Below are positions 5,118 through 31,181 of a stretch of DNA of 41,460 nt, one piece after another. The stretch comes from a virus. Its lineage: Duplodnaviria; Heunggongvirae; Uroviricota; Caudoviricetes. The stretch lies in IMG/VR virus record IMGVR_UViG_2579778753_000003. One strand, given 5' to 3'. Within the stretch, counting starts at the first letter, position 1. The number at the start of each line of letters is the position of its first letter. The notes below the pieces were generated by a model that ran no database searches, was not told the DNA's origin, and saw only the letters and a program-made list of their open reading frames with translations. A program made the translations under genes and the position numbers.

Positions 5118-7940
5118 ATGACGGCAGAGTACATCAGGGACTGGCAACAACCGCGCCACGCAGTGGGGCGTGAAGGAACGGGGATCCCCGCTCCTGAATC
5201 CGCACTTTCCTCCTGGCTGGATGCCTACCGGGTAGAGAACGAGCGCCGCCAGGAAATGGCTGATGCGGCGTTCTCCGCCACGCCGCTGGGCAACCTGATT
5301 AATAAAAGCCTGGACGCACAGGAAAAACAGGACAAAACCATCACACTGGCAGGAGACGCCAGAAAACAGGCACGCGGCGCAGTGGATGAAGCCATGGCCT
5401 CGCTGCGCCTGCTGCCGTCCTATCTGCGCGATCCGCTTATTCGCCACCTCTCCTTCCTGCGCAAAAAACAGGAAGCCGATCGCCGGAAAGGCAAAAAGAG
5501 CTGGCAGGCGGAACGCTATGCACGCGGAACCCTGCGCAAAATATTCGAACGTCTGGACCGCACCGATCACCGCTGGCTGACACCGGGTTATCGCTCCCTT
5601 GCCGGACGCGAACGCCTGGACGATTTGCTTTACCTGCCGCAGCTCAACAAACACCAGATACAGACGCTGGCCACCATGACGGCGGCGATGTTCAGCAGCA
5701 CCTTCGAAAAACTCTGCGATGGCTTTGGCGCGACCGATGGCGAGCTGACCATGGATGTAACGCTGAAGGCGTATCAGATGCTGGCCCGCATGGCGTTACA
5801 CCTGCACGCCATGCCTCCACATTATGACGCACTGACAACAGACAAAGACCGGAGGAACGAACCAGACACGGAGCTGCTGCCGGGCGCAATCCTTCGCCTG
5901 ACCTGTGCGGAATGGTGGAAACGCAAACTGTGGCTGTTACGTTGCGAGTGGCGGGAAGAACAACTCCGCGCCGCCTGTCTGGTTTCCAGAAAAACATCGC
6001 CCTATCTGAGCCAGGACGCGTTAAGCGAGTTTCGCGCACAGCGCGAGAAAACACGCGATTTCCTGAAAAGTTTCATGCTGGAAAATGAAGACGGGTTCAC
6101 GATTGATCTCGAGACGGTGTATTACGCGGGAGTAAGTAACCCGGTTCACCGTAAGGCAGAAATGATGGCCACCATGAAGGGACTGGAACTTCTGGCCGAA
6201 GCCCGTGGCGACAGAGCGGTGTTTCTGACCGTCACCTGCCCGTCAAAATACCACGCAACAACGGAGAACGGTCATCCGAACCCCAAATGGAACGGGGCCA
6301 CCATGCGCGACTCTAGCGATTACCTGGTTAACACGTTTTTTGCGGCGGTCCGCAAAAAACTGAACCGCGACGGCCTGCGCTGGTATGGCATCCGCACGGT
6401 GGAGCCTCACCATGACGGCGCTGTGCACTGGCATATGATGGTCTTTGCACATCCGGACGAGATTGAAACCATCGTGTCCCACGTCTGCGATATTGCCATT
6501 CAGGAGGACCGCCACGAGCTGGGCGATGACATAACTCCGCGTTTTAAGGCGGAGTATGTCGACGGCTCAAAAGGCACACCAACCAGCTACATCGCCACCT
6601 ACATCGGAAAGAACCTGGACAGCCGCGCCGTGGATGGCATCGACCCGAAAACGGGCAAGCCACGCGTTGACCACGAAACCGGAAAATCAATGGCCGAGAG
6701 CGTGGAGCGCGCCATCGGCTGGGCGCGCCTTCACCGGGTCCGTCAGTTCCAGTTCTTTGGCATCCCCTCCCGTCAGGTGTGGCGTGAACTGCGCCGCCTT
6801 GCCAGCCAGATGGCACGCAATCCGGAAGGCCCGCAACGGCTGAAAGATGATGCAATGGATGCGGTACTCGCTGCCGCCGATGCCGGGTGTTTTGCCACCT
6901 ACATTGAAAAACAGGGTGGCGTGCTTGTTCCACGCAAGGACTACCTGATTCGCACCGCCTACGACCTCGCAGATGAGCTGAACGATTACGGCGAACAGAG
7001 CGTACAGATTTACGGGATCTGGTCACCACTCATCGGGGAATCCTCCCGTGTGTGCACGCATCCGGATAACTGGAAGTTGGTAAGACGTAAACCAGAACCA
7101 GAAGACAACGCCCACGAAAATGGTTTTGACCTTCAGGGCGGCCCTGCCGCCCCTTGGACTCGTGGCAATAACTGTCCCCGTGTACAGGAAACGGACAACA
7201 ACGGGACAGAACAGCCGGAAGAACGGCCAGCACCGTGGCCGCAGCTCCCTGACGGCGTTGAAGTGAACGAATGGATGCGCTCACTGAAACGACACGAACG
7301 CCGGGCGCTGATGCGTTCGCTTCGTGACAAACAGGCAAAAAACAGCAGCGATGAAATGCAGAGCTGGACACAGAGCCGCAAACAGCAGCGGCCTTTGCCT
7401 GATAACCACGAATTACTCGCTAAAGAATGGCGGGAGTCTGCTGAATCTCTCGGCCTGCATATCGGTGAACAACAGATGCAGCACCTGTTACGGGGCGGCA
7501 GTCTGTACGTTGACGGCAGCATCATTGCACCGCAGGGATTTGAAATTGTACGCAAACCGGATACCCGCCCGGACAGCCGAATCACGCAGCTCTGGCAGCG
7601 CCTGAGCCGTAATCACGGCGTAAGCAGCACGGAGATCCGCCATAACCCGGTCTCCAGCTATCTGGCACAGCTCGGGGCATCAGACCCCGAAGCCGCCGCA
7701 CGCCTGGCATCCACACTTCAGCAGGTCCAGAACACCATGAAAACACCCGTTACCGTGCTTTCTGACATGCTGCGCGCCATTCGTGACGCAGAGCACGCAC
7801 AGAGAATCAGAGAAACCACTGAACGCGCCCGCCGCAAAGCAAACCTGCTGAGGGCTGGCCTGACCAGTGGAAACAAAAAACAGACAGAAACGGGATTCAC
7901 AAATCCCGTAAATGAGCAAAAAACGCGCCGCGATATATGA
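5118..7940 (+). CDS. Rolling-circle replication initiator (HUH endonuclease, P2 gpA-like)
   Basis: 940-aa ORF with an HUH-type motif (GAVHWHMMVFAH) and a paired-tyrosine motif (TSYIATYIGKN). It is longer than the 761 aa recalled for P2 gpA. Confidence 0.8.
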   Translation: MTAEYIRDWQQPRHAVGREGTGIPAPESALSSWLDAYRVENERRQEMADAAFSATPLGNLINKSLDAQEKQDKTITLAGDARKQARGAVDEAMASLRLLPSYLRDPLIRHLSFLRKKQEADRRKGKKSWQAERYARGTLRKIFERLDRTDHRWLTPGYRSLAGRERLDDLLYLPQLNKHQIQTLATMTAAMFSSTFEKLCDGFGATDGELTMDVTLKAYQMLARMALHLHAMPPHYDALTTDKDRRNEPDTELLPGAILRLTCAEWWKRKLWLLRCEWREEQLRAACLVSRKTSPYLSQDALSEFRAQREKTRDFLKSFMLENEDGFTIDLETVYYAGVSNPVHRKAEMMATMKGLELLAEARGDRAVFLTVTCPSKYHATTENGHPNPKWNGATMRDSSDYLVNTFFAAVRKKLNRDGLRWYGIRTVEPHHDGAVHWHMMVFAHPDEIETIVSHVCDIAIQEDRHELGDDITPRFKAEYVDGSKGTPTSYIATYIGKNLDSRAVDGIDPKTGKPRVDHETGKSMAESVERAIGWARLHRVRQFQFFGIPSRQVWRELRRLASQMARNPEGPQRLKDDAMDAVLAAADAGCFATYIEKQGGVLVPRKDYLIRTAYDLADELNDYGEQSVQIYGIWSPLIGESSRVCTHPDNWKLVRRKPEPEDNAHENGFDLQGGPAAPWTRGNNCPRVQETDNNGTEQPEERPAPWPQLPDGVEVNEWMRSLKRHERRALMRSLRDKQAKNSSDEMQSWTQSRKQQRPLPDNHELLAKEWRESAESLGLHIGEQQMQHLLRGGSLYVDGSIIAPQGFEIVRKPDTRPDSRITQLWQRLSRNHGVSSTEIRHNPVSSYLAQLGASDPEAAARLASTLQQVQNTMKTPVTVLSDMLRAIRDAEHAQRIRETTERARRKANLLRAGLTSGNKKQTETGFTNPVNEQKTRRDI

Positions 7941-8016: not shown

Positions 8017-8976
8017 ATGAAAATTTGTATCGACGACGGCTCCACCAACATCAAGCTGGCATGGACTGAGAATGGCGAACGCCGCAACGCCATCAGCCCG
8101 AACAGCTTCAAGTCGGAATGGTCTGCGCCGTTCGGTGACATGCAGCCCGCGAACTACATGCTTGATGGCGTGCGCTATGGTTTTGATCCGGTCAGCGATC
8201 GCTTTGTCCAGACGACCGACACGCAATACCAGTACAGCGATGTGAATGTAATCGCCATTCATCACGCGCTGGTCAAATCAGGCATCACGCCACAAGAGGT
8301 GGATGTGGTTGTCACCCTGCCACTGAGCGAGTATTTCGAGACAAACGCACAGCCGGACATGGCCAACATCAACCGCAAAAAAGCGAACGTTATGCGCCCG
8401 GTGGAATACCAGAACGGCGAAGCATTCACTATCCGTAACGTGCGGGTTATGCCTGAATCCATTCCGGCTGGCTTTAAAGCACTGGCTGACATGAGTCCGT
8501 TTGAATCCCTGCTGATTGTGGATTTAGGCGGAACCACGCTGGATGTGGCAAAGGTTCAAGGGCAACTGGCAGGTATCAGCCAGGTGTTTTGCGATCCACA
8601 CGTAGGCGTTTCCCTGATGGCCGATGCCGTACTGTCGGTGATGGCCACTAACGGTATGCGCACCAGTCACCACATCGCCAATACCATTATCGAACATCGC
8701 CATGATGAAGCCTGGCTGCGCCAGCACATCCACAATGACGCGCATTACGCCAGCCTGATGGCGGTTATTCGTGAAAAGGAAGAAACACTGAAACAACGCG
8801 TGATCCGCGCGCTGGCGGTTTTTTCGGGTTACGGGCGGGTGATGGTTGTCGGTGGAGGGGCGGAGATTGTGGCACCCGCTATCCGCGAAGTCTGCGGAGT
8901 TAATGCGACTTTCATCGCGGACGGGGTGCCACAGTTTGCTCTGGTTAATGGGCTGTACGCAATGGACAAGGAGTAA
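8017..8976 (+). CDS. parM: Actin-like partition ATPase, ParM/StbA family
   Basis: MKICIDDGSTNIKLAW..., TLPLSEYFETNAQP...RKKANV..., LIVDLGGTTLDVA..., VMVVGGGAE match the recalled ParM/StbA of plasmids R1 and R100. Confidence 0.8.
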   Translation: MKICIDDGSTNIKLAWTENGERRNAISPNSFKSEWSAPFGDMQPANYMLDGVRYGFDPVSDRFVQTTDTQYQYSDVNVIAIHHALVKSGITPQEVDVVVTLPLSEYFETNAQPDMANINRKKANVMRPVEYQNGEAFTIRNVRVMPESIPAGFKALADMSPFESLLIVDLGGTTLDVAKVQGQLAGISQVFCDPHVGVSLMADAVLSVMATNGMRTSHHIANTIIEHRHDEAWLRQHIHNDAHYASLMAVIREKEETLKQRVIRALAVFSGYGRVMVVGGGAEIVAPAIREVCGVNATFIADGVPQFALVNGLYAMDKE

Positions 8977-8980
8977 ACCA

Positions 8981-9295
8981 ATGACGACACCAACCAGACG
9001 GATAAGTTTCTATCTGAAGCCCGCCGCCGTCAAGAGTGAACAGGAGGCGTGCAATTACCTCGATAGCCTGCCAGCCTCCGAACGCAGCCGCGCGCAACGC
9101 GCGGCCTTTCTGGCTGGGCTAGCGCTCATAAAGCGCAACCCAGCATTTGCCTACTGGATGGCCGAATGGCCAGAGGACAACCTCCCCTTCAATACCGTTA
9201 GCATCAAGGAAACATACCAGGATAATCAGCCTAGCGGAGTTGAATGCAATTTTTATAAAATAAAAAAGAATATTCAGACCTTATTCCCAGAATAA
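8981..9295 (+). CDS. parR: ParR/StbB-like partition adaptor
   Basis: 104-aa ORF 5 nt after parM with an AGGAG Shine-Dalgarno; RISFYLKPAAV...LDSLPASERSRAQRAAFLAGLAL resembles StbB. The track ORF from 8846 overlaps parM. Confidence 0.65.
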   Translation: MTTPTRRISFYLKPAAVKSEQEACNYLDSLPASERSRAQRAAFLAGLALIKRNPAFAYWMAEWPEDNLPFNTVSIKETYQDNQPSGVECNFYKIKKNIQTLFPE

Positions 9296-9343: not shown

Positions 9344-9368
9344 TGGCACCCTTGCTAACAGGGTGCCA
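9344..9368. terminator. 9-bp stem hairpin between convergent genes (possible bidirectional terminator)
   Basis: tggcaccct-tgctaac-agggtgcca; lacks a clean U-tract on either strand. Confidence 0.3.
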
Positions 9369-9378
9369 ATGTTTCAAA

Positions 9379-10221
9379 TCATGATGAAATTGCCGAAGTT
9401 TTTTTATCGTGCTGAAGTACCGCAAATGCCATTAAAACCTCAAGAGAATAGCGGCGATAATACTTAACAAAACCATAATAAAATACTCGGGATGCAGCAA
9501 TACAAAACAAGAGAAGAAAACAAAAAGGTAACAGTCTGATATTTATATCTATTAAAAAGGATAGAAGGAGCAGGAACATAAGCAACCAGACTGAAGCGAG
9601 AAAAACAAATGTAATGTTTCTACAAAAACCATACAAAGCAACATAGTTTTGCATTTTCACCTGATGATTTTTAGAATGTTCATACACATAATGATAAGCA
9701 AGGCGAAAAAGATCGCCCCTCAAGCCCTTACGTCGATATAGCGTAGATACAGAAAAAACATTTATATAACCATCTCGTATTTGCGGCCAAAAGACTTTAA
9801 TAAGTATAGAATGCAGTGTGGTTTTATGATGTTCTGCTTTATCAAAAGCTGATACAGGAAATAAAAAAACTCCACGAATAAAATTAACTATACTGAACTT
9901 AGTATTATGTCGTTTTATTTTCAGGGAGCTTCTTTTAGAAAACAGATAAATTGAAGGATACCCAAGTTTACTGTTCATGTATTTTTCAATTAAACAGGAT
10001 GATAGAATAGATATGAAGTGACCTGAAATATATGATAGAACGATTAATACCACATATATAAATACACTTATTATTTCTTTATATTTCAGGATATGGTTAA
10101 GAATACCTTCTATATAAACAGGGTTAATTTCAATAGAAAACAAAAAAAGGATAAACAGGAATAACCCACCTGGAATTAGATAGCCCAAAAAGTCATAAAA
10201 TGAAAACGGATTCTGTGTCAC
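9379..10221 (-). CDS. Multi-pass membrane protein, unknown family (cargo gene 2)
   Basis: 280-aa ORF, AT-rich and codon-atypical for the prophage; hydrophobic helices at both termini (LIPGGLFLFILFLF..., FVFLASVWLLMFLLLLSFL...); no recognisable motif. Confidence 0.7.
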   Translation of the reverse strand: MTQNPFSFYDFLGYLIPGGLFLFILFLFSIEINPVYIEGILNHILKYKEIISVFIYVVLIVLSYISGHFISILSSCLIEKYMNSKLGYPSIYLFSKRSSLKIKRHNTKFSIVNFIRGVFLFPVSAFDKAEHHKTTLHSILIKVFWPQIRDGYINVFSVSTLYRRKGLRGDLFRLAYHYVYEHSKNHQVKMQNYVALYGFCRNITFVFLASVWLLMFLLLLSFLIDINIRLLPFCFLLLFCIAASRVFYYGFVKYYRRYSLEVLMAFAVLQHDKKTSAISS

Positions 10222-10260
10222 ACTTCCCCCTGTGTTACTTGTAAATTAAAGGGTAAAACA

Positions 10261-10758
10261 TTATTTGTTTTTCCGTAAAGGATTAGCTTTCCATCTTCTT
10301 ACTAACCATTCGAATTCTTGATATGTAGTATCCGAATTAATGCTTTCTCTGATTGCTTTAATTAATGGCTCGGCAATATCATATGTCTCTACAACTGTTG
10401 TGTAAGATGTTCTTTTTATCATTTTTTCATCATAAATACCTTCACGAATACTTACAGCAACTCGCTCGTAAAAATTTAAAATATATTGAAATTTTCGACG
10501 CTCGGCCATTTCTTCATCTGTTATTATGCAACCATCACAAGGAAAAACATAAGAACGAAATGATTTGCCTGAACGATGCACTTGTTTCAGGGTATGCAAT
10601 GACTCTATATATTGCATATCTTGCCGACTCTCAAAAAGAAAGTTGGCCGTTTGAGTTTTTTTTGCGGTACGCACATTGTAGATAATGGTTCCAATGGCAA
10701 CCAAAACGCCAAGCAGAACAATAGCATTGCTGATGATTTGTAGTGTTATTGGGTTCAT
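10261..10758 (-). CDS. N-terminally membrane-anchored protein, unknown family (cargo gene 1)
   Basis: 165-aa ORF; N-terminal helix LQIISNAIVLLGVLVAIGTIIY followed by a soluble domain; AT-rich; 39 bp upstream of cargo gene 2 on the same strand. Confidence 0.7.
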   Translation of the reverse strand: MNPITLQIISNAIVLLGVLVAIGTIIYNVRTAKKTQTANFLFESRQDMQYIESLHTLKQVHRSGKSFRSYVFPCDGCIITDEEMAERRKFQYILNFYERVAVSIREGIYDEKMIKRTSYTTVVETYDIAEPLIKAIRESINSDTTYQEFEWLVRRWKANPLRKNK

Positions 10759-10777
10759 CCTATTTCATCCATAAAAA

Positions 10778-10800
10778 AGGCGGGGAGCAAATCCCCGCCT
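10778..10800 (-). terminator. Intrinsic-terminator-like hairpin in the 5' leader of the cargo operon (candidate attenuator)
   Basis: aggcgggga-gcaaa-tccccgcct (9-bp GC-rich stem); on the minus strand it is followed by U6; it ends 20 nt before the ATG at 10758. Confidence 0.5.
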
Positions 10801-10819
10801 CATTAGAGGTCAACGTAGC

Positions 10820-10855
10820 TTAGAAACCATCAAATTCATCATACATTTTTTTCAT
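10820..10855 (-). CDS. Candidate 11-codon leader peptide
   Basis: ATGAAAAAAATGTATGATGAATTTGATGGTTTCTAA (MKKMYDEFDGF) with GAGGGGG 5 nt upstream; its stop lies about 19 nt before the terminator hairpin. Confidence 0.25.
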   Translation of the reverse strand: MKKMYDEFDGF

Positions 10856-10955
10856 ATCAACCCCCTCATAGAAATCATAACCACGTTTTGTGGTTTTTGT
10901 GACGTATAAACTACATCAAAGGCAAGCCACGGTCAAATATATAGGCATGCTTACC

Positions 10956-11101
10956 TGCACAAAAGTGCACAAATTTGCACAATTTTTTTGAACGACTTTT
11001 TACCCTTCCGGCCCGCATGGCGGCTGGATCCGTCAAGGATCCGTGCGTGCACAAAAAAACGCGCTTTTTCTGCGCGCAGGTGACGGGGGAACAGCCCGCG
11101 T
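10956..11101. repeat. Iterated TGCACAA motifs and GC-rich block; candidate cos/packaging region
   Basis: tgcac at 10956, 10966 and 10976 (exact 10-bp period) and again at 11047; ggatccgt repeated at 11026 and 11037; tgcgcgcaggtgacgg at 11071 resembles recalled P2 left-end sequence. The exact cohesive end was not located. Confidence 0.3.
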
Positions 11102-11480
11102 TTCAGGGGGTAAATAGCATTCCCTGAACGATGTCGCAGAGACACAACAGAATGGCCATATTTCTCACGCTGAGCATGAAAAAGGCGTGAGGGCTTTTGA
11201 TTTGATGGGGTGAAAGGTAAGGCCGTCAAAATCGCACTGAGGCAGCGAGAACATACAGTCAACGCGGTGGGATTGCGTAAGAGTCTGACCGTCGATGGTG
11301 GCGATAAACTGGAAGGCGTCGTGAAATTATCTGATTGATACAGGAGCTGGAGAGCCGGGGCATAAATTTTTTATGCCCGGCGAAGCAGCAGACAAGCGAA
11401 GCGCGTCAGTGATGCGGCACCTTGCCGACCACACTTCATAAGTGCAAAATACGAGCAAAGAAATCAATGGAGGCTGTTTT

Positions 11481-12005
11481 ATGGTCATTAATTACAAGCA
11501 GTTACGAGAAAAACGAGAGCAGGTAAAGGAAAGTTTTCGCCGCAATGAAGATCTGACCCCGCTTGTACACCTTGCTCAGGGAATTGTAGATGCTTATGAA
11601 ATCTCTCTGGAGCTGCCATCACAGACATGGACTGATAGCGACGGTAATCGCCAGCATTACGTTTCATGCGGACTGGAAACAACTGAAGGGTTTCGCAGAA
11701 TGCCTTTATCTCAGATTCCTGCCGCTACCCCCAAAGCAAGGGGCGGCAATGATGAGCGAAAACTGATTTTCAGCATTGAGACAGTGGTTGACGACACACC
11801 TGGCGAAGTCGCCTTCGTGCATACTCCTCTTTCGATCGCAATGTATAACGATGAAATACAGGTTCGCGTTAATAATAATATCGTGCCACTTAAAGAAGGT
11901 AATTCACCATACACCACCGTTTGTGAAGCCATTCAATATTACGTTCTCTCTGAAATTGATAATCTCAAGCCTGACGGCACCCAGAAAATGGTTCAACTCT
12001 GGTAA
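11481..12005 (+). CDS. Hypothetical cargo protein
   Basis: ATG at 11481 with GGAGG 7 nt upstream (the track ORF starts at 11442 without a Shine-Dalgarno); 174 aa, no recognisable motif; convergent with the portal gene. Confidence 0.55.
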   Translation: MVINYKQLREKREQVKESFRRNEDLTPLVHLAQGIVDAYEISLELPSQTWTDSDGNRQHYVSCGLETTEGFRRMPLSQIPAATPKARGGNDERKLIFSIETVVDDTPGEVAFVHTPLSIAMYNDEIQVRVNNNIVPLKEGNSPYTTVCEAIQYYVLSEIDNLKPDGTQKMVQLW

Positions 12006-12010
12006 AAAGG

Positions 12011-12036
12011 ACAGCCCCATCACGGGGCTGTTTTTT
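12011..12036. terminator. Bidirectional terminator-like hairpin at convergent gene ends
   Basis: acagcccc-atca-cggggctgt followed by T6 on the plus strand; overlaps the last portal codons. Confidence 0.45.
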
Positions 12037-13066
12037 CATCAAGAAGAGCATAAGAATTAAAACGGATCACCTCTTCGCCAAGCCAGTCATTGATGTGCTT
12101 CATGGCCTCCATGACGGGCATCAGCTCGTTAATTGCGTAAACACGCGCGGCCTTCTCCACATCACCAAACGCACTTTTTTCACCCGGCATCGCCCCCATC
12201 AGTTGCGGCGGAACGCGGTGCGCAGCCAGCACATCATCACGGGATGCCGCCTTAACATTCATGAACTCATCCTTTGCTGTGATCTGCTGGAACGGCAAAA
12301 TTTGCACCCCCTCTTTGCCCCCGTTGGGCGCATGAATGAGCACATTTTTAAACGCACCACCACCACGTGCACCCTGTAGCGTTTCTTTCAGGGAGTCCAT
12401 GCTTTCGCGGTTTACCTGCGCTGCACCGATGTAGATGATGCACCCGGCGTGGGATCCGTTGTCGTAATACAGTTTTCTGAACATGTCCGCCGAATGAGAC
12501 AGGCTGGCCGAGAGTAATGCGCCGAGATATTCCGGCATGCCGTAAATTTCCTGGTTAATGTCAGGATTCATCAGGTGGCACACTTTGCCAGGGCGAAACT
12601 GAAACGCGTCCTTGCCATCCTGCACATACCACCATGATTCAAGATCGCTTCCGCGTCGCATGTATTTCGCCAGGGCGTGCCGTAATTTAAGCGGTTCGCC
12701 GAGCATATTGCTTCGAAGCTCAAGAAATGCGTTACCGAACACAAACCAGTCCAGCGCCAGCGCCGAGAAATCCTGCCGGGAAAGCAGCGGGTGCGGGATG
12801 TAGCAACCGAGTAATACATTGCGCTTAAAGTAAAGCGCAGACTGATGCCAGGACGTTTGCCGGGCAGCTCTTGCCAGACCGTACCAGTCCACCGGGGTTT
12901 CATACCACCGACCGTTATCAGCACAGTACATATTGTCCAGCAGGTCATGCCCGGTCAGGCGGTAAGGACCATCAAATGTGAATGCACTGAGCGACGATTC
13001 TTTCCTGAGCGCATCAGCGAGATCAATGCGTGAACTCATGCGCAATTTTTTATTTTTTCTGCTCAT
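12020..13066 (-). CDS. Q: Portal protein (P2 gpQ-like)
   Basis: 348 aa; ...SWHQSALYFKRN...NPDINQEIYGMPEYL...HRVPPQLMG...GDVEKAARV... resembles recalled gpQ; start overlaps the terminase stop (ATGA). Confidence 0.9.
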   Translation of the reverse strand: MSRKNKKLRMSSRIDLADALRKESSLSAFTFDGPYRLTGHDLLDNMYCADNGRWYETPVDWYGLARAARQTSWHQSALYFKRNVLLGCYIPHPLLSRQDFSALALDWFVFGNAFLELRSNMLGEPLKLRHALAKYMRRGSDLESWWYVQDGKDAFQFRPGKVCHLMNPDINQEIYGMPEYLGALLSASLSHSADMFRKLYYDNGSHAGCIIYIGAAQVNRESMDSLKETLQGARGGGAFKNVLIHAPNGGKEGVQILPFQQITAKDEFMNVKAASRDDVLAAHRVPPQLMGAMPGEKSAFGDVEKAARVYAINELMPVMEAMKHINDWLGEEVIRFNSYALLDEKTAP

Positions 13067-14817
13067 CAGAACTCCATAACCGTGAAACGCTCGTTTTCTC
13101 CTTCGCCGCCAATCGGTTCGTTAATGACAGCAAGCATGGTTGCCCACGCAAGGTCGCCGTGGCTGATCCCCCTCGCACGGTCCGTTTCGTAAGTGATAAA
13201 GCCGCCCGGTGTTTTCACCTTACGCACGGCGTTAAAGGCCGCGACCAGCTCGCGTTCGGCGCGATCGTATTCCCACCGCCCGGCACGCATTATTTGCAGC
13301 ATTTTCAGTACCAGCGACCGTTTTGATGACAGCGTGAAGGTGTACGGAATAGCAGCAGGGAAAAACCGTTTCACTATCTGATAAACAGCCTCCCCGTTCC
13401 CGCCCGTCACATCAATGCCGATGTGTTCCACGTTGTAGCGATACGTGAACTCTTCAATGACTCTGGCCTGTTCTTCAAACTCCAGCCCCTGAACGCGTCG
13501 CGTCTCCACCGTTCGAAAACGGCCACCAGGAACAGCCGGAGGAACCACCACGGACACAGCGCCGCTGTCGCCGTTGCCACTGCTGCCGTTTGCGTCATAT
13601 CCAATCCATACCGGACGATTCCCCATCGGGCGGGGAGCAAAAGGTTTCCAGTCTTTCCAGTCGTCGTATCCATCAACACCGCAGCCAATCAGGATATTCA
13701 GGTTAAATGCCGATTCCCCTTCGCGGACAAACTCACACATATAGAGATTGAGGAACTCGTCTTCGGTGTTTTCATCACGAATTTCGTCGATATCGGTGTG
13801 TTTCCAGCCGTGATTAACCACATCTTCCAGCGTAACAATTTGCCGCCACGTCCGGTCAGGGCAGATAAGCCCGTTATGCAGCGTTTTCCAGTCCACAGAA
13901 AAACGCTGGCGTTTATGCGCGGCCTTTTTCTCGTTCCAGCGGTCGCCGTTCCAGTAGACGTATGCCTCGTGCGTTTCGGTTGATGGCGTGGAGAAGTAGG
14001 TGCGTCGCAGCCCGCTGAGGGTTGCCATAGCGCCAGCCACCTTGCGCAGTTCAGCAAAGCGACTGACCCAGAAAAATTCATCAAAATAAAAATTGCCTGT
14101 GTAGGACTGTGCCGTCGCAGCAGAAGTACCGAGAAAATGCAGTTCTGCGCCGTTGGAGAGGATGATTTTATCGCCCCCTTTCAGCTCCACATCAACTTCA
14201 GATGCAGCCTTCTGAATAATGCTTTTAAACTGGAACGCCTGACGACGCGACGCAGACAAAAAAATCTGGTTACGCTGGTAAGGTTGCGCCACATCGTCAC
14301 GCAGCGCCATCAGCAGTGCTTCCTGTGCAAAATACCAGGTCGCCCCAATCTGTCGGGATTTCAGGATCATCCTGTTACGTATCCCGGCTTCACTGCAAAG
14401 GGTCAGGGAGTCAAACCAGCCCCGCTGATGCCACTCCAGCCTGCTGATGATTTTTTCCCGCAGTGCGGCAATCTGCTCCGGCGTGAAATGATTTTTAAGT
14501 TTTTTCGCCCGGCCTTTCTTTCCTGTGGCCGTCGCATCCGGCTGGCCATCATGCAGTTTTTTAAGCTGCCGGGTCAGCAGGTCTATTTCCTTAAAGTCAC
14601 CACCTGTTTTATTCTGTTTTTCAGTAAGCTGGATGAGGCGCGCATCGATGGACTGCGTGACACGCTGCACGGGTGGCGTTTCATCCCACTGGTCGCGTTT
14701 TTTCCACGCATAAATCGTGTTCGGGTTTATTCCCATCAGACGTGATATTTCTGCGGGCGGATAACCCTGCCAGTAAAGTTGCCGCGCACGCTGGCGCACA
14801 AAAGCGTCCTGAATCAT
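13066..14817 (-). CDS. P: Terminase large (ATPase) subunit (P2 gpP-like)
   Basis: 583 aa immediately upstream of the portal on the same strand; the long soluble ORF matches the gpP position and size. Confidence 0.9.
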   Translation of the reverse strand: MIQDAFVRQRARQLYWQGYPPAEISRLMGINPNTIYAWKKRDQWDETPPVQRVTQSIDARLIQLTEKQNKTGGDFKEIDLLTRQLKKLHDGQPDATATGKKGRAKKLKNHFTPEQIAALREKIISRLEWHQRGWFDSLTLCSEAGIRNRMILKSRQIGATWYFAQEALLMALRDDVAQPYQRNQIFLSASRRQAFQFKSIIQKAASEVDVELKGGDKIILSNGAELHFLGTSAATAQSYTGNFYFDEFFWVSRFAELRKVAGAMATLSGLRRTYFSTPSTETHEAYVYWNGDRWNEKKAAHKRQRFSVDWKTLHNGLICPDRTWRQIVTLEDVVNHGWKHTDIDEIRDENTEDEFLNLYMCEFVREGESAFNLNILIGCGVDGYDDWKDWKPFAPRPMGNRPVWIGYDANGSSGNGDSGAVSVVVPPAVPGGRFRTVETRRVQGLEFEEQARVIEEFTYRYNVEHIGIDVTGGNGEAVYQIVKRFFPAAIPYTFTLSSKRSLVLKMLQIMRAGRWEYDRAERELVAAFNAVRKVKTPGGFITYETDRARGISHGDLAWATMLAVINEPIGGEGENERFTVMEF

Positions 14818-25333: not shown

Positions 25334-25867
25334 ATGATGCACTTAAAAAACATTACTGCTGGCAACCCTAAAACAAAAGAGCAATACCAGCTAACGAAAC
25401 AATTTAACATCAAATGGCTTTATTCAGAGAATGGAAAAAACTGGTATGAGGAACAAAAGAATTTCCAGCCAGACACTTTGAAAATGGTCTATGACCATAA
25501 CGGCGTTATTATTTGTATTGAAAAGGATGTTTCAGCAATTAATCCGGAAGGCGCAAGCGTCGTTGAATTACCTGATATTACAGCAAATCGCCGTGCTGAC
25601 ATTTCGGGTAAATGGATGTTCAAAGATGGCGTAGTGGTAAAGCGAACTTATACCGAGGAAGAGCAGAGGCAGCAGGCGGAAAATGAAAAGCAAAGCCTGC
25701 TACAGCTCGTTAGGGATAAAACCCAGCTATGGGACTCACAGCTACGGCTGGGCATCATTTCCGACGAGAATAAACAAAAATTAACCGAGTGGATGCTCTA
25801 TGCGCAGAAAGTCGAATCTACAGACACCTCCAGCCTGCCAGTAACATTTCCCGAACAACCTGAATGA
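25334..25867 (+). CDS. G: Tail fibre assembly protein (gpG-like), partner of cassette 1
   Basis: 177 aa immediately after the tail fibre gene. Confidence 0.85.
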   Translation: MMHLKNITAGNPKTKEQYQLTKQFNIKWLYSENGKNWYEEQKNFQPDTLKMVYDHNGVIICIEKDVSAINPEGASVVELPDITANRRADISGKWMFKDGVVVKRTYTEEEQRQQAENEKQSLLQLVRDKTQLWDSQLRLGIISDENKQKLTEWMLYAQKVESTDTSSLPVTFPEQPE

Positions 25868-25895
25868 GACAAGGCCCGATAGCGGGCCTTAATTT

Positions 25896-26423
25896 TTATT
25901 CAGGCTTTTGTGGCCATTCAGGATTTGCCGTATCCACACGGCTGACCAGAACACTGTAGCGTTCCCATGCTTCCAGTCGTGTGCGTTCCTCGTCTGTTGC
26001 CATATTCAGCCTGACAGCGCGTTCCAGCGGCTGGATGACTGATTCAGCTTCGGAAAGCAATGCGGCCTTTTGTGATTCGGCTTGTTGTTGCTGTTCGTCT
26101 GCCGTATAAATCCGTTTAACTACAGCTCCATCCTTAAACATCCACTTTCCTGAATCATCAGCGCGGCGGTTGGCTGTAATATCTGGAACCTCAACGACGC
26201 TAAAACCTTCAGGGTTAAGCGTGGAGGCATCTTTAGTGATGGCGACAATAATATTATTTGCATCGTAAACAATCTTTATTGTGTCTGGCTGAAAGTTTTT
26301 CACTTCCTCATACCAGTTTTTTCCGTCCTCAGAGTAAAGCCAGATAACTCCGTGTTTCTTTGTTAACTCATACTGTTCCAGTGTTTTAGCGTTACCCGCT
26401 TTTATGTTCTTTAAGTGCATCAT
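25896..26423 (-). CDS. Alternative tail fibre assembly protein, partner of cassette 2
   Basis: 175 aa, about 50% identical to the gpG-like protein (MMHLKNI.AGN.KT.EQY.LTK...), inverted orientation. Confidence 0.8.
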
Positions 26424-26424
26424 A

Positions 26425-27449
26425 TTAAACGCTCGCTACATTATACCAGGTGCCATTTATATACTTTTGAACGGGTCTGTAATAAACGCCCGCTATATTA
26501 TCGGCAGAGTTGGACCCTGTATCCTGAACATTAATACCAGACAATACATGACCTGACGGGCACTGGAAATTCCATGTTTGCCAGTTGTTCACTCTATAAT
26601 ATTGCTGTGAACCAAGTCGAACATCTTTCACATATCTGGAATCAAAATTGCCATAGTTGCCGGGAATAACTTGCGCACCGCAAAGCCAGTTTCCGTTATT
26701 ATCCATGTACGCCTGACCATCGGTGCCATTGGCTGTCCTTGAATTATTAATCATGTAGATGCCAAATTGCTTATTTCCCAGACCGCCAATCATAAATTTG
26801 CGGTCGGCATGGTCCTGACGGAGCAAAGCCTGAGCACCATCAGTGGATACCGCATTACGTCCCATAATAACGTTCTGGTCACGCATATGAATCCACATGC
26901 CTGTACTGCTGTTAATTAAAAAACGGTTTGCAAATATATCTCCTGTAACATCCAGACCATGCCCCATAGTTATGCGACCAGTTCTGAGATTAAGCGTAAA
27001 GGGGCGTAGTGGCCCTATATCGCCATTTTCCCCCTCATTTTCTCGGGTAGGGATGATATGAAGACATTCTTCAGAACGGCGAAAAATAGCACCAAAAGAT
27101 GAATTAAATATCCTCAGTGCATTGACTGTCGATATTTTTACTTCACTGCTGAAAAGGGCTTTAACAAGAACAGACAAAGCATCCCATTTAAGATTCATCA
27201 GGTCTTTTGTTGTGGTGCTTTGTTTGCTTCTCCATTTGAAATATTCATTGCCGTTGTCGCCTGTTTCAAACCACATGTATGAATCAGTATCGCTGTCGGC
27301 ATCATTTTTAAAACCAATCTTTGCCCAGTCAGTATTCCGAATCCAGGCAAGGATTGAGTCGTTTTCAAAAGTAAGCCCACCGGACAAGATATCGCCTGTC
27401 TTTTGGACGGCGTTACCAGCCTTGTTTACCGTTTCCTGTAAACCGAGGT
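26425..27449 (-). CDS. Alternative tail fibre C-terminal cassette 2 (promoterless in this orientation)
   Basis: Frame is open from the centre through ...[30 protein letters not shown]...; no ATG start; would fuse to the constant tail-fibre N-terminus after inversion. Confidence 0.7.
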
Positions 27450-27450
27450 A

Positions 27451-28475
27451 ACCTCGGTTTACAGGAAACGGTAAACAAGGCTGGTAACGCCGTCCAAAAG
27501 ACAGGCGATATCTTGTCCGGTGGGCTTACTTTTGAAAACGACTCAATCCTTGCCTGGATTCGGAATACTGACTGGGCAAAGATTGGTTTTAAAAATGATG
27601 CCGACAGCGATACTGATTCATACATGTGGTTTGAAACAGGCGACAACGGCAATGAATATTTCAAATGGAGAAGCAAACAAAGCACCACAACAAAAGACCT
27701 GATGAATCTTAAATGGGATGCTTTGTCTGTTCTTGTTAAAGCCCTTTTCAGCAGTGAAGTAAAAATATCGACAGTCAATGCACTGAGGATATTTAATTCA
27801 TCTTTTGGTGCTATTTTTCGCCGTTCTGAAGAATGTCTTCATATCATCCCTACCCGAGAAAATGAGGGGGAAAATGGCGATATAGGGCCACTACGCCCCT
27901 TTACGCTTAATCTCAGAACTGGTCGCATAACTATGGGGCATGGTCTGGATGTTACAGGAGATATATTTGCAAACCGTTTTTTAATTAACAGCAGTACAGG
28001 CATGTGGATTCATATGCGTGACCAGAACGTTATTATGGGACGTAATGCGGTATCCACTGATGGTGCTCAGGCTTTGCTCCGTCAGGACCATGCCGACCGC
28101 AAATTTATGATTGGCGGTCTGGGAAATAAGCAATTTGGCATCTACATGATTAATAATTCAAGGACAGCCAATGGCACCGATGGTCAGGCGTACATGGATA
28201 ATAACGGAAACTGGCTTTGCGGTGCGCAAGTTATTCCCGGCAACTATGGCAATTTTGATTCCAGATATGTGAAAGATGTTCGACTTGGTTCACAGCAATA
28301 TTATAGAGTGAACAACTGGCAAACATGGAATTTCCAGTGCCCGTCAGGTCATGTATTGTCTGGTATTAATGTTCAGGATACAGGGTCCAACTCTGCCGAT
28401 AATATAGCGGGCGTTTATTACAGACCCGTTCAAAAGTATATAAATGGCACCTGGTATAATGTAGCGAGCGTTTAA
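27451..28475 (+). CDS. Duplicate (mirror) copy of cassette 2
   Basis: Identical translation to 26425-27387 on the opposite strand. Confidence 0.65.
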
Positions 28476-28476
28476 T

Positions 28477-29004
28477 ATGATGCACTTAAAGAACATAAAA
28501 GCGGGTAACGCTAAAACACTGGAACAGTATGAGTTAACAAAGAAACACGGAGTTATCTGGCTTTACTCTGAGGACGGAAAAAACTGGTATGAGGAAGTGA
28601 AAAACTTTCAGCCAGACACAATAAAGATTGTTTACGATGCAAATAATATTATTGTCGCCATCACTAAAGATGCCTCCACGCTTAACCCTGAAGGTTTTAG
28701 CGTCGTTGAGGTTCCAGATATTACAGCCAACCGCCGCGCTGATGATTCAGGAAAGTGGATGTTTAAGGATGGAGCTGTAGTTAAACGGATTTATACGGCA
28801 GACGAACAGCAACAACAAGCCGAATCACAAAAGGCCGCATTGCTTTCCGAAGCTGAATCAGTCATCCAGCCGCTGGAACGCGCTGTCAGGCTGAATATGG
28901 CAACAGACGAGGAACGCACACGACTGGAAGCATGGGAACGCTACAGTGTTCTGGTCAGCCGTGTGGATACGGCAAATCCTGAATGGCCACAAAAGCCTGA
29001 ATAA
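28477..29004 (+). CDS. Duplicate (mirror) copy of the alternative tail fibre assembly gene
   Basis: Identical translation to 25896-26423 on the opposite strand. Confidence 0.7.
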
Positions 29005-29032
29005 AAATTAAGGCCCGCTATCGGGCCTTGTC

Positions 29033-29566
29033 TCATTCAGGTTGTTCGGGAAATGTTACTGGCAGGCTGGAGGTGTCTGTAGATTCGACTTTCTGCGCAT
29101 AGAGCATCCACTCGGTTAATTTTTGTTTATTCTCGTCGGAAATGATGCCCAGCCGTAGCTGTGAGTCCCATAGCTGGGTTTTATCCCTAACGAGCTGTAG
29201 CAGGCTTTGCTTTTCATTTTCCGCCTGCTGCCTCTGCTCTTCCTCGGTATAAGTTCGCTTTACCACTACGCCATCTTTGAACATCCATTTACCCGAAATG
29301 TCAGCACGGCGATTTGCTGTAATATCAGGTAATTCAACGACGCTTGCGCCTTCCGGATTAATTGCTGAAACATCCTTTTCAATACAAATAATAACGCCGT
29401 TATGGTCATAGACCATTTTCAAAGTGTCTGGCTGGAAATTCTTTTGTTCCTCATACCAGTTTTTTCCATTCTCTGAATAAAGCCATTTGATGTTAAATTG
29501 TTTCGTTAGCTGGTATTGCTCTTTTGTTTTAGGGTTGCCAGCAGTAATGTTTTTTAAGTGCATCAT
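29033..29566 (-). CDS. Duplicate (mirror) copy of the gpG-like tail fibre assembly gene
   Basis: Identical translation to 25334-25867 on the opposite strand. Confidence 0.7.
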   Translation of the reverse strand: MMHLKNITAGNPKTKEQYQLTKQFNIKWLYSENGKNWYEEQKNFQPDTLKMVYDHNGVIICIEKDVSAINPEGASVVELPDITANRRADISGKWMFKDGVVVKRTYTEEEQRQQAENEKQSLLQLVRDKTQLWDSQLRLGIISDENKQKLTEWMLYAQKVESTDTSSLPVTFPEQPE

Positions 29567-29568
29567 CG

Positions 29569-30508
29569 TTAAATACTCCCCGCGTTATACCACGTCCCAT
29601 TAATGCAATACTGAATTGGCCTTGCCTGAGTTGTATCAATTAATTCATCACGGTTTCCGTTAACTGAACCCGTAACGACATAACCTGACCTGTCAGACCA
29701 GCCGGGACCATTCCATGTCTGAACAGATGACAGACCGCCAAGGCGAATACCTGTAATAAACCTTGAGTTACATTCTGCCTGCGTGTATGCACCAACATCT
29801 CCCGCAGAGGGTTTGCGGGTCGTGGTGTAAAACTCTGACCAGTCAGCCTCAAATCCATAACCATCACGCGCTGAACGATAAAAAATACCGCCGTTCCTGT
29901 AATTCACGCGGAACTGTACAGCAGGGCAGCTCCCCGTATTCATATTGAAGTGGAGGATTAATGTCGATGCGCCACCAATGTTTGCGTTATAGACCCCGCT
30001 ATTCCAGTTCCAGCCAACAGCTTTATCATTTCCGACAGTGCTTCCTGTTTGCCCTAAAGCAAATGCAGGTTGTTGATTTTTCGTGTTGTAGTCTCGTCGC
30101 CAGCCAGGAGCGTAAGCATCACCATGATTAATATAAGTGAATTGAGCGTTAGTAATTCCGCCACCGCTGGACGTGCTCGGCGTGGTAACGCGTATGGTCA
30201 TTGCGCCGCGAGTGCCAATAACTTCCACCACAGCACCTGCAAGACAAATATTTCCGCAACCTGTATCTGTAATGACCTTATTATTTGCATAAGCCCATGA
30301 GCCTTTGCACATCCAGTAAGGATGGTTAAATGCTCCCTGACTCTCCAGCCACGAAATAAATTGCGCGGTTGTCCAGACCTGACTATCGCCACCAATATCC
30401 AGCCATGCGCTATATGCGCGGCAGGCCCCAATATTTTTGGTGAAGGTATCTTTTCCCGGAATATCTGCGCCGTTCTGGTTTTTCTGTAATGCGCCAGAAG
30501 CCTGATTT
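29569..30508 (-). CDS. Duplicate (mirror) copy of cassette 1 (promoterless)
   Basis: Translation identical to the tail-fibre C-terminus; frame is open up to the gixR-like site. Confidence 0.65.
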
Positions 30509-30513
30509 ACCGT

Positions 30514-30539
30514 TTCCTGTAAACCGAGGTTTTAGATAA
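30514..30539. other. Invertase crossover site gixR-like
   Basis: ttcctgtaaacc-ga-ggttttagataa; mirror of the left site with two outer-arm mismatches; 37 bp upstream of the invertase gene. Confidence 0.7.
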
Positions 30540-30575
30540 TGGCCGTTTCCGGCCTGCATGGCATGATTTGCGCTT

Positions 30576-31181
30576 TTGGACGGGAGATTCAGCGTGCTGA
30601 TTGGCTATGTAAGGGTATCAACAAATGACCAGAATACAGACCTGCAACGAAACGCTCTTGTTTGTGCAGGATGTGAACAAATATTTGAAGATAAATTAAG
30701 CGGGACAAAGACAGACCGACCGGGATTAAAACGCGCTTTAAAGCGCCTTCAAAAAGGTGACACGCTGGTTGTCTGGAAACTGGATCGCCTCGGGCGAAGC
30801 ATGAAACATCTGATTTCTCTCGTCGGGGAACTACGGGAGCGAGGAATTAATTTTCGCAGTCTGACCGACAGCATAGATACATCTTCTCCAATGGGGCGTT
30901 TTTTCTTCCACGTGATGGGTGCCCTGGCTGAAATGGAACGTGAATTAATTGTTGAACGTACACTGGCCGGACTGGCGGCAGCACGCGCACGGGGGCGCAC
31001 AGGCGGACGTCGACCGAAGCTGACAAAAGAACAGCATGAGCAAATAGCAAGGCTGATCAAAAACGGGCACGACAGAAAACAACTGGCAATAATTTACGGC
31101 ATTGGTATATCGACGATTTATCGTTACCACCCCGCAGGAGAATCAATCGGAACAATAGAGAAGAGTCAGGAAACAAAATAA
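30576..31181 (+). CDS. Serine DNA invertase (Gin/Cin/Pin/Hin family)
   Basis: LIGYVRVSTNDQNTDLQRNAL...DTLVVWKLDRLGRSMKHLI... with a C-terminal helix-turn-helix (GISTIYRY); an alternative GTG start at 30594 gives the canonical N-terminus. Confidence 0.9.
   Translation: MDGRFSVLIGYVRVSTNDQNTDLQRNALVCAGCEQIFEDKLSGTKTDRPGLKRALKRLQKGDTLVVWKLDRLGRSMKHLISLVGELRERGINFRSLTDSIDTSSPMGRFFFHVMGALAEMERELIVERTLAGLAAARARGRTGGRRPKLTKEQHEQIARLIKNGHDRKQLAIIYGIGISTIYRYHPAGESIGTIEKSQETK

Follow-up and report, generated by a model that had tools for sequence, protein, structure and literature searches.

What is a pair of AT-rich minus-strand genes doing between the replication and portal genes of a P2-like prophage, and do the two genes form one system? 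The question is raised by the viral record IMGVR_UViG_2579778753_000003, a stretch of 41,460 nucleotides which we call the window in its full length, and which is a P2-like (Peduoviridae) prophage located next to dmsA in Escherichia coli ST131, for example in EC958 and JJ1886. An earlier note, made from the sequence alone, had described positions 9379-10758 as an uncharacterised two-gene operon in which a membrane sensor is paired with a membrane effector for phage defence or exclusion. Our analysis suggests a different anatomy. We tentatively read the locus, at a little less than even chances, as a lysogen-expressed and probably anti-phage membrane cassette composed of two morons, where the product of the first gene, a DUF4760 protein, would be governed by a micropeptide encoded just upstream.

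Reading of the sequence confirmed two open reading frames (ORFs), both on the minus strand. The first (10261-10758) starts with ATG and encodes 165 amino acids, the second (9379-10221) starts with GTG and encodes 280 amino acids, and the 39 nucleotides (nt) between them contain the motif GGGGGAA and no terminator. The AT-rich, foreign composition pointed out in the note was borne out: the GC content is 0.349 for the 165-residue ORF and 0.317 for the 280-residue one, GC at third codon positions is 0.27 and 0.26 as against 0.59 in the portal gene and 0.65 in gpA, and 500-nt windows give 0.30-0.32 within the cassette versus 0.53-0.60 in the phage flanks. These values mark the two-gene cassette as compositionally foreign. 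The proposed membrane architecture, with one N-terminal helix in the first protein and several passes in the second, was upheld as well, one and four transmembrane (TM) segments being predicted. On the other hand, the note had recognised no known family, and this did not stand: the 165-residue protein is a member of Pfam family DUF4760 (PF15956, E=1.8e-34) and the family of the 280-residue protein, hereafter the 4-TM protein, matches the Csx27 model in 21 of 21 members.

We then asked how often the two genes travel together. Loci were taken from the species genomes of GTDB, from viral contigs of IMG/VR and from assemblies in which specific homologues occur, and all six-frame ORFs of 169 loci were searched with hidden Markov models of both families. 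DUF4760 was found in 94 loci and the 4-TM gene in 94, but both in only 19; 75 loci carry DUF4760 without the 4-TM gene, and 75 others the 4-TM gene without DUF4760. All the joint loci hold the same cassette (at least 96% identity for the 4-TM protein and at least 99% for DUF4760) or an 87% variant of it (locus L043), so that the sensor-effector pairing imagined in the note is limited to one near-identical cassette. As judged from these comparisons, the two genes appear to be independent modules joined recently and not a conserved pair.

The surroundings of the solo genes point in the same direction. DUF4760 relatives at 33-90% identity always occur without the 4-TM gene. The note had proposed a look at other P2-like prophages, and there DUF4760 stands alone, directly after the portal gene and the cos region (L003, L004, L006, L119-L134), with varied other cargo between it and gpA, in Klebsiella, Enterobacter, Kluyvera, Xenorhabdus and other hosts. 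Citrobacter phage phiSM displays the order gpA-ParM-ParR-DUF4760-portal as in the window, with no 4-TM gene. DUF4760 is also found among the tail genes of other prophages (L007, L009, L020, L021, L159-L163) or as a lone low-GC gene among housekeeping genes, a yfaE-glpT site being common to three genera (L019, L022, L024). Distant homologues with 23-34% identity come immediately after a cI-like repressor gene (L172, L173, L176, in Pseudomonas prophages), before a holin gene (L170), among tail genes (L174) or between aspS and glyA. As for the relatives of the 4-TM protein (36-49% identity), their solo genes are placed immediately upstream of xis/int, where lambdoid prophages end. The places near repressor, holin and tail genes, like that beside xis/int, are typical of lysogen-expressed genes. 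A solo homologue of 288 residues (44% identity; 6001-6867 in L027-L031, from E. coli and Shigella) follows yfdP/yfdQ/yfdR-like genes and precedes an excisionase-like gene near lexA-dinF-zur; it is very common, with more than 2,000 index blocks of the assembly collection containing it.

The two modules also differ in their boundaries. Solo P2 cassettes possess their own strong terminator about 20 nt past the DUF4760 stop codon. In the window cassette no terminator follows DUF4760; its place is taken by the 4-TM gene, which has a Shine-Dalgarno (SD) sequence of its own. By replacing the terminator site of the unit, the 4-TM gene would therefore be read through from the same promoter. The comparison shows an old, self-contained mobile unit, made of promoter, mini-ORF, terminator, DUF4760 and second terminator, to which was added a 4-TM gene that is an independent moron normally located alone beside xis/int in lambdoid prophages. 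The cassette is present in 297-299 of 5,426 complete E. coli genomes from unrelated lineages, with an identity that is almost always at least 99%, and these near-identical copies suggest that one fused version has spread recently. Identities of 60-88% are kept among DUF4760 relatives, as against 42-49% for the nearest 4-TM relatives outside the cassette lineage. DUF4760 was detected on 8 of 72,556 plasmid records, four of which are of chromosome size (2.2-4.1 Mb). As a side observation, the solo DUF4760 cassette of L129 (5864-9030) is followed by two low-GC ORFs (0.31-0.32) of 578 and 477 residues, whose N-termini resemble those of an ATPase and of a P-loop helicase and suggest a possible Gabija-like pair.

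Nor do the two genes make up the full unit, as the note had it, since a mini-ORF and a terminator at 10771-10867 lie outside the positions that it covered. The mini-ORF (10820-10855, minus strand, ATG to TAA) encodes MKKMYDEFDGF in 11 codons and is preceded by the SD sequence GAGGGGG (10861-10867, minus). A promoter-like site, GTCACA-18 nt-TATGAT, is seen at 10874-10903 (minus); it comes from a consensus scan and is weak evidence, the surrounding region is not enriched for such sites, and its position fits the start of the conserved leader. The mini-ORF is unannotated in RefSeq EC958, and no Rfam family reached threshold in 10650-11450. Requiring 8-20 codons, a strong SD and an acidic-aromatic C-terminus, we found a mini-ORF upstream of DUF4760 in 51 of 52 non-redundant loci, in all five distant homologues and in the isolated phage phiSM. 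The single exception is a rearranged variant with its breakpoint in the hairpin loop: in L048/L116 (IMGVR_UViG_2718217897_000009), unrelated sequence replaces everything upstream of the terminator loop. Nearly every mini-ORF has a strong GGAGG or GGGGG some 6-8 nt before its ATG. The peptides follow the pattern M-K-K-x-F-D-E-F-D-G-F with close variants (MSIHDEYEGF, MEAMFDEYDWF, MKRIICDEFEWV), those of high-GC phages are MRDVIDGL and MKDVIGGF, and those of the distant homologues, each with a strong SD, are MKNYPRDGWEDY, MNKRGMDGWEDY, MNNYLMDGWEDY, MYRSDDYEGF and MLHDTWDD; their acidic-aromatic C-termini include FDEFDGF, DEYEGF, DGWEDY, DTWDD and DVIDGL. An acidic tail with a terminal aromatic residue is reminiscent of how single-strand DNA-binding proteins end at their C-terminus, which we mention as a lead only.

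Is it the peptide or the nucleotide sequence that is kept? Over the last six codons, pairwise comparison gives 841 synonymous versus 258 non-synonymous differences, and third positions vary freely (GAT/GAC, GAA/GAG, GGT/GGC, TTT/TTC). Nucleotide identity is 0.82 in the coding tail versus 0.38 in the 15 nt past the stop codon. From this codon variation and from the drop of identity past the stop, it follows that selection acts on the mini-ORF peptide. In three of the five distant homologues there is no terminator, and the mini-ORF stop abuts or overlaps the DUF4760 start. The peptide is thus what stays constant across two coupling architectures, and its persistence both with a terminator, in the enteric loci, and with a stop/start overlap, in the distant ones, speaks for a function of the peptide itself. 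At 2501-2622 of the E. coli replicon pGPT24-02-C (L177, NZ_OZ282456.1), which is 46 kb long and phage-plasmid-like, the leader occurs as an orphan (MKKRYDEFDGF, anti-SD spacer and terminator); no DUF4760 follows it, only a 33-codon ORF. Among the E. coli matches, 7 of 312 lie on plasmids.

Between the mini-ORF and DUF4760, the leader contains two further elements. The anti-SD spacer GTTGACCTCT (10805-10814, minus) can pair with the SD region of the mini-ORF, and the minimum-free-energy fold of the leader pairs GGGGGUUGAU with GUUGACCUCU. In 22 of 33 leaders, pairing of at least five SD-region bases with the spacer after the stop is predicted, and the spacer motif AACCTCT is kept across the enteric clade. 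The second element, identified by terminator scan, is an intrinsic terminator (10771-10801, minus) formed by the perfect 10-bp GC-rich hairpin GAGGCGGGGA-TTTGC-TCCCCGCCTT and a T-run. Its folding energy is -19.4 kcal/mol (z = -3.8), and none of 200 shuffled sequences was as stable. A perfect hairpin of 7-12 bp with a T-rich tail is present in 33 of the 33 leaders examined, and its arm sequences differ completely between clades while the pairing is kept, the changes being fully compensatory. In most enteric loci the terminator is located 16-19 nt past the mini-ORF stop. The DUF4760 start codon of the window comes 12 nt after the T-run with only a weak GGA before it, and the gene has no promoter of its own. 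No stable antiterminator could be found, since the truncated leader folds at -9.7 kcal/mol (z = +1.0), no better than shuffled sequences. RNAalifold found no pairs in 24 leaders aligned with MAFFT, because the hairpins were out of register in this alignment, and leader hairpins were detected sequence by sequence instead of by alignment consensus. A conserved motif, ATGGATGAAA, follows directly after the T-run (10759-10780, minus). In several homologues it opens the DUF4760 frame (MDEK...), and in the window it gives a dead five-codon frame, MDEIG*, the stop codon of which shares the bases ATGA with the annotated ATG.

The 165-residue protein is assigned to DUF4760 with a score of 119.3 bits for a gathering cut-off of 25 over model positions 2-141 of 141. 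The Pfam model is matched by 28 of 28 aligned relatives too, and the protein also matches phrog_2284 (E=7.7e-74). Hydropathy gives one TM segment at residues 8-26, followed by RTAKK. The AlphaFold2 (AF2) model (pLDDT 92.2, pTM 0.79) displays a long N-terminal helix containing this segment and then a compact all-helical bundle; the protein is predicted to be anchored in the inner membrane with its helical domain facing the cytoplasm. The family comprises 2,638 cluster representatives at 50% identity, of which the best 150 are single-domain proteins of 150-200 residues; in these 150, no extra Pfam domain was found on the longer members, and no fusion. One candidate fusion, P0109, was discarded as it looks like an assembly chimera, its last 47 residues being the same as in the window protein. 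Positions that hardly vary across the family are L94-N95-x-x-E98, E111, K115, R137, T144 and W156. Frameshifted (two-fragment) or truncated copies of the gene were observed in Pantoea, Photorhabdus, Trabulsiella and Scandinavium (L018, 4007-4521; L023, 7842-8461; L025, 983-1276; L026, 93-317): the DUF4760 gene can decay.

The kinship of the 4-TM protein is more remote. No Pfam family covers it, and it matches phrog_12528 (E=1.1e-71). In the PADLOC database, it matches the Csx27 model PDLC01605 with E=1.1e-5, and the best of the 21 family members reaches E=5.6e-8; the matches cover most of the model (positions 4-179 of 206). The model tm_4, built on 4-TM proteins associated with type VI-B systems, is matched by 6 of the 21 members, and no other PADLOC membrane-effector model is matched by any of them. 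We regard the protein as a probable, remote member of the Csx27 superfamily. Hydropathy finds three of its four membrane segments, the fourth (about 229-250) being read by eye, and the AF2 helices are consistent with four; Rousset et al. give one TM segment for the first protein and four for the second according to Phobius (PMC9122126). A basic loop of 143 residues (21 K+R versus 6 D+E) and the C-terminal helix probably face the cytoplasm because of the positive-inside rule. Alignment A2 of the family contains 77 invariant columns, which concentrate in the N-terminal QNPFSFYDFLGYLIPGG motif, in the basic loop with its conserved motifs GDLFRLAYHYVYE..HQ.K.QNYVALYGFCRN, and in the C-terminal FVKYYRRYSLEVLMAF helix. 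The AF2 model is moderate (pLDDT 69) and has no informative structural neighbour. The Csx27 family itself is said to have been analysed by Makarova and co-workers in 2019, in FEMS Microbiol Lett. Like Csx27, the 280-residue protein has four predicted TM helices, but the match of its family is remote (E between 1e-5 and 6e-8), and the basic cytoplasmic insert is a feature of its own. Moreover, Csx27 proper is encoded beside cas13b and a type VI-B array, whereas neither cas13b nor a CRISPR array is found nearby here, the neighbours being ParM, ParR, DUF4760 and P2 structural genes. Csx27, an accessory membrane protein of type VI-B1 systems (Smargon et al. 2017), repressed Cas13b interference in E. 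coli (bioRxiv 10.1101/092577).

The structural model of DUF4760 led to an unexpected resemblance. Its top matches in the Protein Data Bank (PDB) are the EP domains of EDS1, PAD4 and SAG101 (4nfu, 7xey, 8zf0). Independently, Foldseek ranks the EDS1-family chains first, with probabilities of 0.94-0.99 and a TMq of 0.52-0.58 for the best ones, as against at most 0.32 for all other matches. The corresponding E-values are only 0.18-0.56, sequence identity is 6-10%, and the alignment takes in the predicted TM helix, which inflates the score. The Pfam EP-domain family (presumably PF18117) is matched by none of the 28 DUF4760 members at E up to 10, and DUF4760 profiles of 28 and 77 sequences did not retrieve EDS1-family chains from the PDB sequences. 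The predicted structure of DUF4760 is thus EP-like at the level of the fold and not at that of the sequence; we take the similarity as a real fold-level resemblance whose evolutionary meaning is uncertain. The EP fold has been described as confined to seed plants, and no bacterial EP-like domain was apparent in the literature, among the matches listed. Unlike the EDS1 family, DUF4760 has no lipase-like N-terminal domain and is membrane-anchored, with no evidence of heterodimers, nucleotide ligands or partner NLRs. No TIR or other signalling gene stands beside it in any locus inspected.

The slot that houses the cassette is bounded by the gene of the replication endonuclease gpA (5118-7940) and by the portal gene (12020-13066), beyond which comes the terminase gene (13066-14817). 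From this position the note had deduced a variable slot for anti-phage cargo, and the gpA-portal interval is indeed an experimentally validated anti-phage hotspot (Rousset et al. 2022, PMC9122126). The cassette sits at its cos-proximal edge; the P2 cos 19-mer itself was not found in the window when up to three mismatches were allowed. The description of the slot content was correct in placing the pair there and incomplete in that ParM, a ParR/StbB-like gene and a 174-residue ORF are also present. ParM (8017-8976, plus strand) is recognised by StbA_N (E=2.9e-82) and by the ParM C-terminal domain (E=1.1e-68), and is followed by the ParR/StbB-like "Plasmid_stab_B" protein (8981-9295, plus). These two genes, which are convergent with the minus-strand cassette, may let the phage persist as a plasmid; ParM/StbB is system #1 of Rousset et al., with 4,592 occurrences (PMC9122126). 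A hairpin, GGCACCCT-gttagca-AGGGTGCC (9345-9367, minus), was read in the sequence after the 4-TM stop and separates the cassette from the ParR-like gene; it has no T-run, and its role as a terminator is presumptive. The 174-residue ORF (11481-12005, plus; phrog_5091, no Pfam family) lies between the upstream region of the cassette and the portal gene, and Rousset et al. list it as a further "hypothetical" in the same hotspot arrangement (PMC9122126); a 46% identical copy adjoins gpA in Trabulsiella (L025). The 1.6-kb cassette region is found at 100% identity in three deposited phage records. Two regions of the window lie apart from the slot. The tail-fibre region (25334-31181) looks invertible, with mirror-image 320-residue fibre-tip ORFs (26425-27387, minus; 27513-28475, plus) that have identical Pfam scores and flank tail-fibre assembly genes in both orientations, and with a serine invertase gene (30576-31181; Resolvase and HTH_7, E=1.5e-50). 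Near the far end of the prophage, a low-GC ORF (0.35-0.37; 39303-40196, plus) encodes a VasI-family domain of type VI secretion systems (E=5.1e-25); a VasI-family cargo gene is listed as ORF1 of Citrobacter rodentium phage phiSM (PMC6456863).

The pair is not a new sighting. Both window proteins are residue-for-residue identical to system #3, "DUF4760", of Rousset et al. (Cell Host Microbe 30:740, 2022; Table S5B; PMC9122126), which counts 1,102 occurrences in E. coli and is preceded in rank by the partition genes ParM/StbB and by a HEPN/methylase system. The tables of validated or additionally tested systems of that study contain neither protein sequence (PMC9122126). The pair is treated there as a two-gene system, with no mention of a mini-ORF or a terminator, of the genes being independent, of kinship with Csx27 or of an EP-like fold. 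As hotspot cargo the cassette was known already; new are its anatomy in three elements and two modules, a micropeptide found throughout the family, and, for the proteins, the relation to Csx27 and the resemblance to the EP fold. Profile searches, as envisaged in the note, returned no validated defence match but did find families: in the search for known defence families, only DUF4760 and Csx27/tm_4 came out of PADLOC, Pfam, NCBIfam and PHROGs, and the PADLOC matches are limited to Csx27, tm_4 and a weak partial PDC-S35 (E 0.004-0.014). The three-hypothetical-protein system (3HP) of Rousset et al. was considered as a possible identity for this locus and dropped, no such PADLOC match being obtained.

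How could such a cassette work? Its three coding elements would be the mini-ORF, DUF4760 and a 4-TM protein of the Csx27 superfamily. The terminator and the weak SD of DUF4760 would throttle the downstream genes, and the micropeptide, whose mini-ORF has a strong SD, would therefore be in large excess over DUF4760. The short-lived, acidic micropeptide would bind the cytoplasmic domain of DUF4760 in trans and keep the protein off. An infecting phage that stops host expression, or titrates the peptide, would release DUF4760, which would then damage or gate the inner membrane; in the window cassette the co-transcribed Csx27-like protein would contribute to this membrane effect, and the infection would be aborted or excluded. 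A defence or exclusion role, as suggested in the note, is plausible from the position of the cassette. We see the chances for and against an anti-phage function acting at the inner membrane of the lysogen as evenly balanced, and consider the trans-acting inhibition of DUF4760 by the micropeptide as doubtful.

Supporting this proposal, the pair is the third most frequent cargo of the validated P2 hotspot in E. coli, and the conserved parts of both proteins are predicted to be cytoplasmic. The foreign composition and wide spread of the cassette, its modular make-up, the lysogeny-type places of the homologues, the conserved mini-ORF and the kinship with Csx27 also speak for it. Several points weigh against it. 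Trans-acting peptides of 8-12 residues are rare, and the enteric leader, with its SD:anti-SD helix and its terminator, looks like a classical cis-acting attenuator. The L048/L116 variant has lost the mini-ORF and the 5' arm of the hairpin and keeps both genes intact. Single-gene DUF4760 islets between housekeeping genes could reflect a role in host physiology, and native Csx27 represses Cas13b interference rather than killing cells (bioRxiv 10.1101/092577). Finally, no paper giving DUF4760 a function was found, the sole full-text mention being a Serratia genomic-island paper that names the domain, and neither protein matches a validated defence family in PADLOC-DB 2.0.0, which covers systems described up to 2023.

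One could assume, alternatively, that the mini-ORF is a purely cis-acting leader, whose translation or nascent peptide sets read-through of the terminator, or re-initiation in the coupled versions, the free peptide being without function. DUF4760 and the 4-TM protein would then be made only when translation is perturbed, as by infection. The layout of the enteric leaders (SD, short ORF, anti-SD spacer, perfect terminator) is that of an attenuator, DUF4760 starts no more than about 20 nt from the T-run with a weak SD and no promoter of its own, and the conserved C-terminal residues of the peptide are reminiscent of the arrest peptides TnaC and Erm leaders. However, the spacer leaves a terminating ribosome several nt short of the hairpin, the truncated leader (-9.7 kcal/mol, z = +1.0) reveals no convincing antiterminator, and the distant homologues keep the peptide without the terminator, which makes the peptide the only constant feature; a copy of the leader even persists on a phage-plasmid without DUF4760. 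We hold this explanation, the main rival, to be as doubtful as the trans-acting inhibition. The non-defence alternative, in which the cassette is a peptide-antidote/membrane-toxin addiction module stabilising the prophage, or a host membrane or stress factor, seems to us unlikely. It would account for a highly expressed small first gene followed by a throttled second one, which matches toxin-antitoxin logic in gene order and inferred expression ratio only, and for the chromosomal islets among housekeeping genes, at some sites common to several genera. ParM and the ParR-like gene adjoin the cassette, about a quarter of P2-like phages carrying them (PMC9122126), and the authors of phiSM list the neighbouring cargo as fitness factors (PMC6456863). 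Yet DUF4760 is frequent in P2 hotspots without ParMR and at tail-gene or repressor-proximal sites typical of exclusion genes, it is almost absent from plasmids, and its frameshifted or truncated copies (L018, L023, L025, L026) indicate that its loss is tolerated.

Two further explanations fare less well. That a 165-residue membrane sensor and a dedicated 280-residue effector constitute an obligate system for abortive infection or exclusion would agree with the 39-nt spacing, with the absence of a terminator between the genes and with their single shared leader. The curation of Rousset et al. handles both as one system (PMC9122126), and hotspot recombination is reported to create functional chimeras (bioRxiv 10.64898/2026.02.27.708500). 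Such an obligate pair is nevertheless highly unlikely in our opinion: the genes do not co-occur beyond the near-identical cassette, the 75 and 75 solo loci include phiSM and P2 hotspots in other genera, solo copies of either gene come with a promoter and a terminator of their own, and their conservation is uneven (60-88% for DUF4760 versus 42-49% for the 4-TM protein). Taking the EP-like fold at its word, one would also wonder if DUF4760 is a functional and structural EP counterpart that binds a TIR-type nucleotide messenger (pRib-AMP, ADPr-ATP), as a membrane effector or as a phage-encoded sponge. The structural ranking that inspires this idea is inflated by the predicted TM helix and comes with Foldseek E-values of 0.18-0.56, no sequence signal emerges from Pfam (E up to 10, 28 members) or from the PDB-sequence profiles, and neither an adjacent TIR gene in the loci inspected nor a domain fusion speaks for it, so that we regard it as a very long shot.

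If the micropeptide-governed cassette that we propose is correct, what would follow? The cassette occurs in about 5% of complete E. coli genomes, with pandemic ST131 among them, and should it block phages, this would bear on the host range considered in phage therapy. The functional unit to clone and mutate would be the mini-ORF with DUF4760, and not DUF4760 with the 4-TM gene. Standard annotation, and hence the pipelines that search for defence systems, overlook a gene of 11 codons. The cassette also illustrates how, in nature, two independent morons became a single operon at a recombination hotspot. As for the unexplained origin of a key domain of plant immunity, the EP-like fold provides a concrete lead that can be tested. 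In its most ambitious form, which we think quite unlikely, the hypothesis would be that DUF4760 and its 8-12-residue micropeptide constitute an unrecognised, very widespread peptide-gated membrane module, found in prophages and in the chromosomes of bacteria, whose cytoplasmic domain is the first prokaryotic EP relative, here with a recruited Csx27-family effector. A conserved micropeptide governing a membrane protein across thousands of gene families would, if true, be a new regulatory or immune principle.

A parallel can be drawn with several known systems. Rst_2TM_1TM_TIR of the P2-like phage AC1 occupies the same hotspot and combines a 1-TM with a multi-TM protein, and it has been validated against lambda, LF82_P8 and P2 (Rousset 2022, PMC9122126). 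It depends, however, on a TIR protein that is absent from the window cassette, and the window proteins match none of its models in a PADLOC scan at E up to 1. RexA/RexB of lambda, tin and old of P2, SieA/SieB of P22 and gp15 of HK97 are lysogen-expressed prophage genes in accessory slots or close to the repressor; RexB has four TM segments, gp15 of HK97 is a moron with one TM segment located among tail genes, and some DUF4760 homologues lie directly downstream of a cI-like repressor, as rexAB does. No homology of either protein to Rex, Tin, Old, Sie or gp15 was detected with PADLOC, Pfam and PHROGs; Tin and Old are soluble, unlike the cassette proteins, and Rex is an obligate pair whereas the cassette pair appears not to be. 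The leader itself evokes other examples. In the microcin C operon, the mccA heptapeptide gene is followed by an intrinsic terminator, which yields an excess of peptide over the proteins that act on it, and tnaC and the erm leaders are leader-peptide attenuators. These designs have no sequence relationship with the cassette, DUF4760 belongs to no recognisable enzyme class, and the distant DUF4760 loci, unlike them, replace the terminator by a stop/start overlap. What they share with the cassette is a very short and well-translated first ORF, followed by a terminator that limits the downstream genes.

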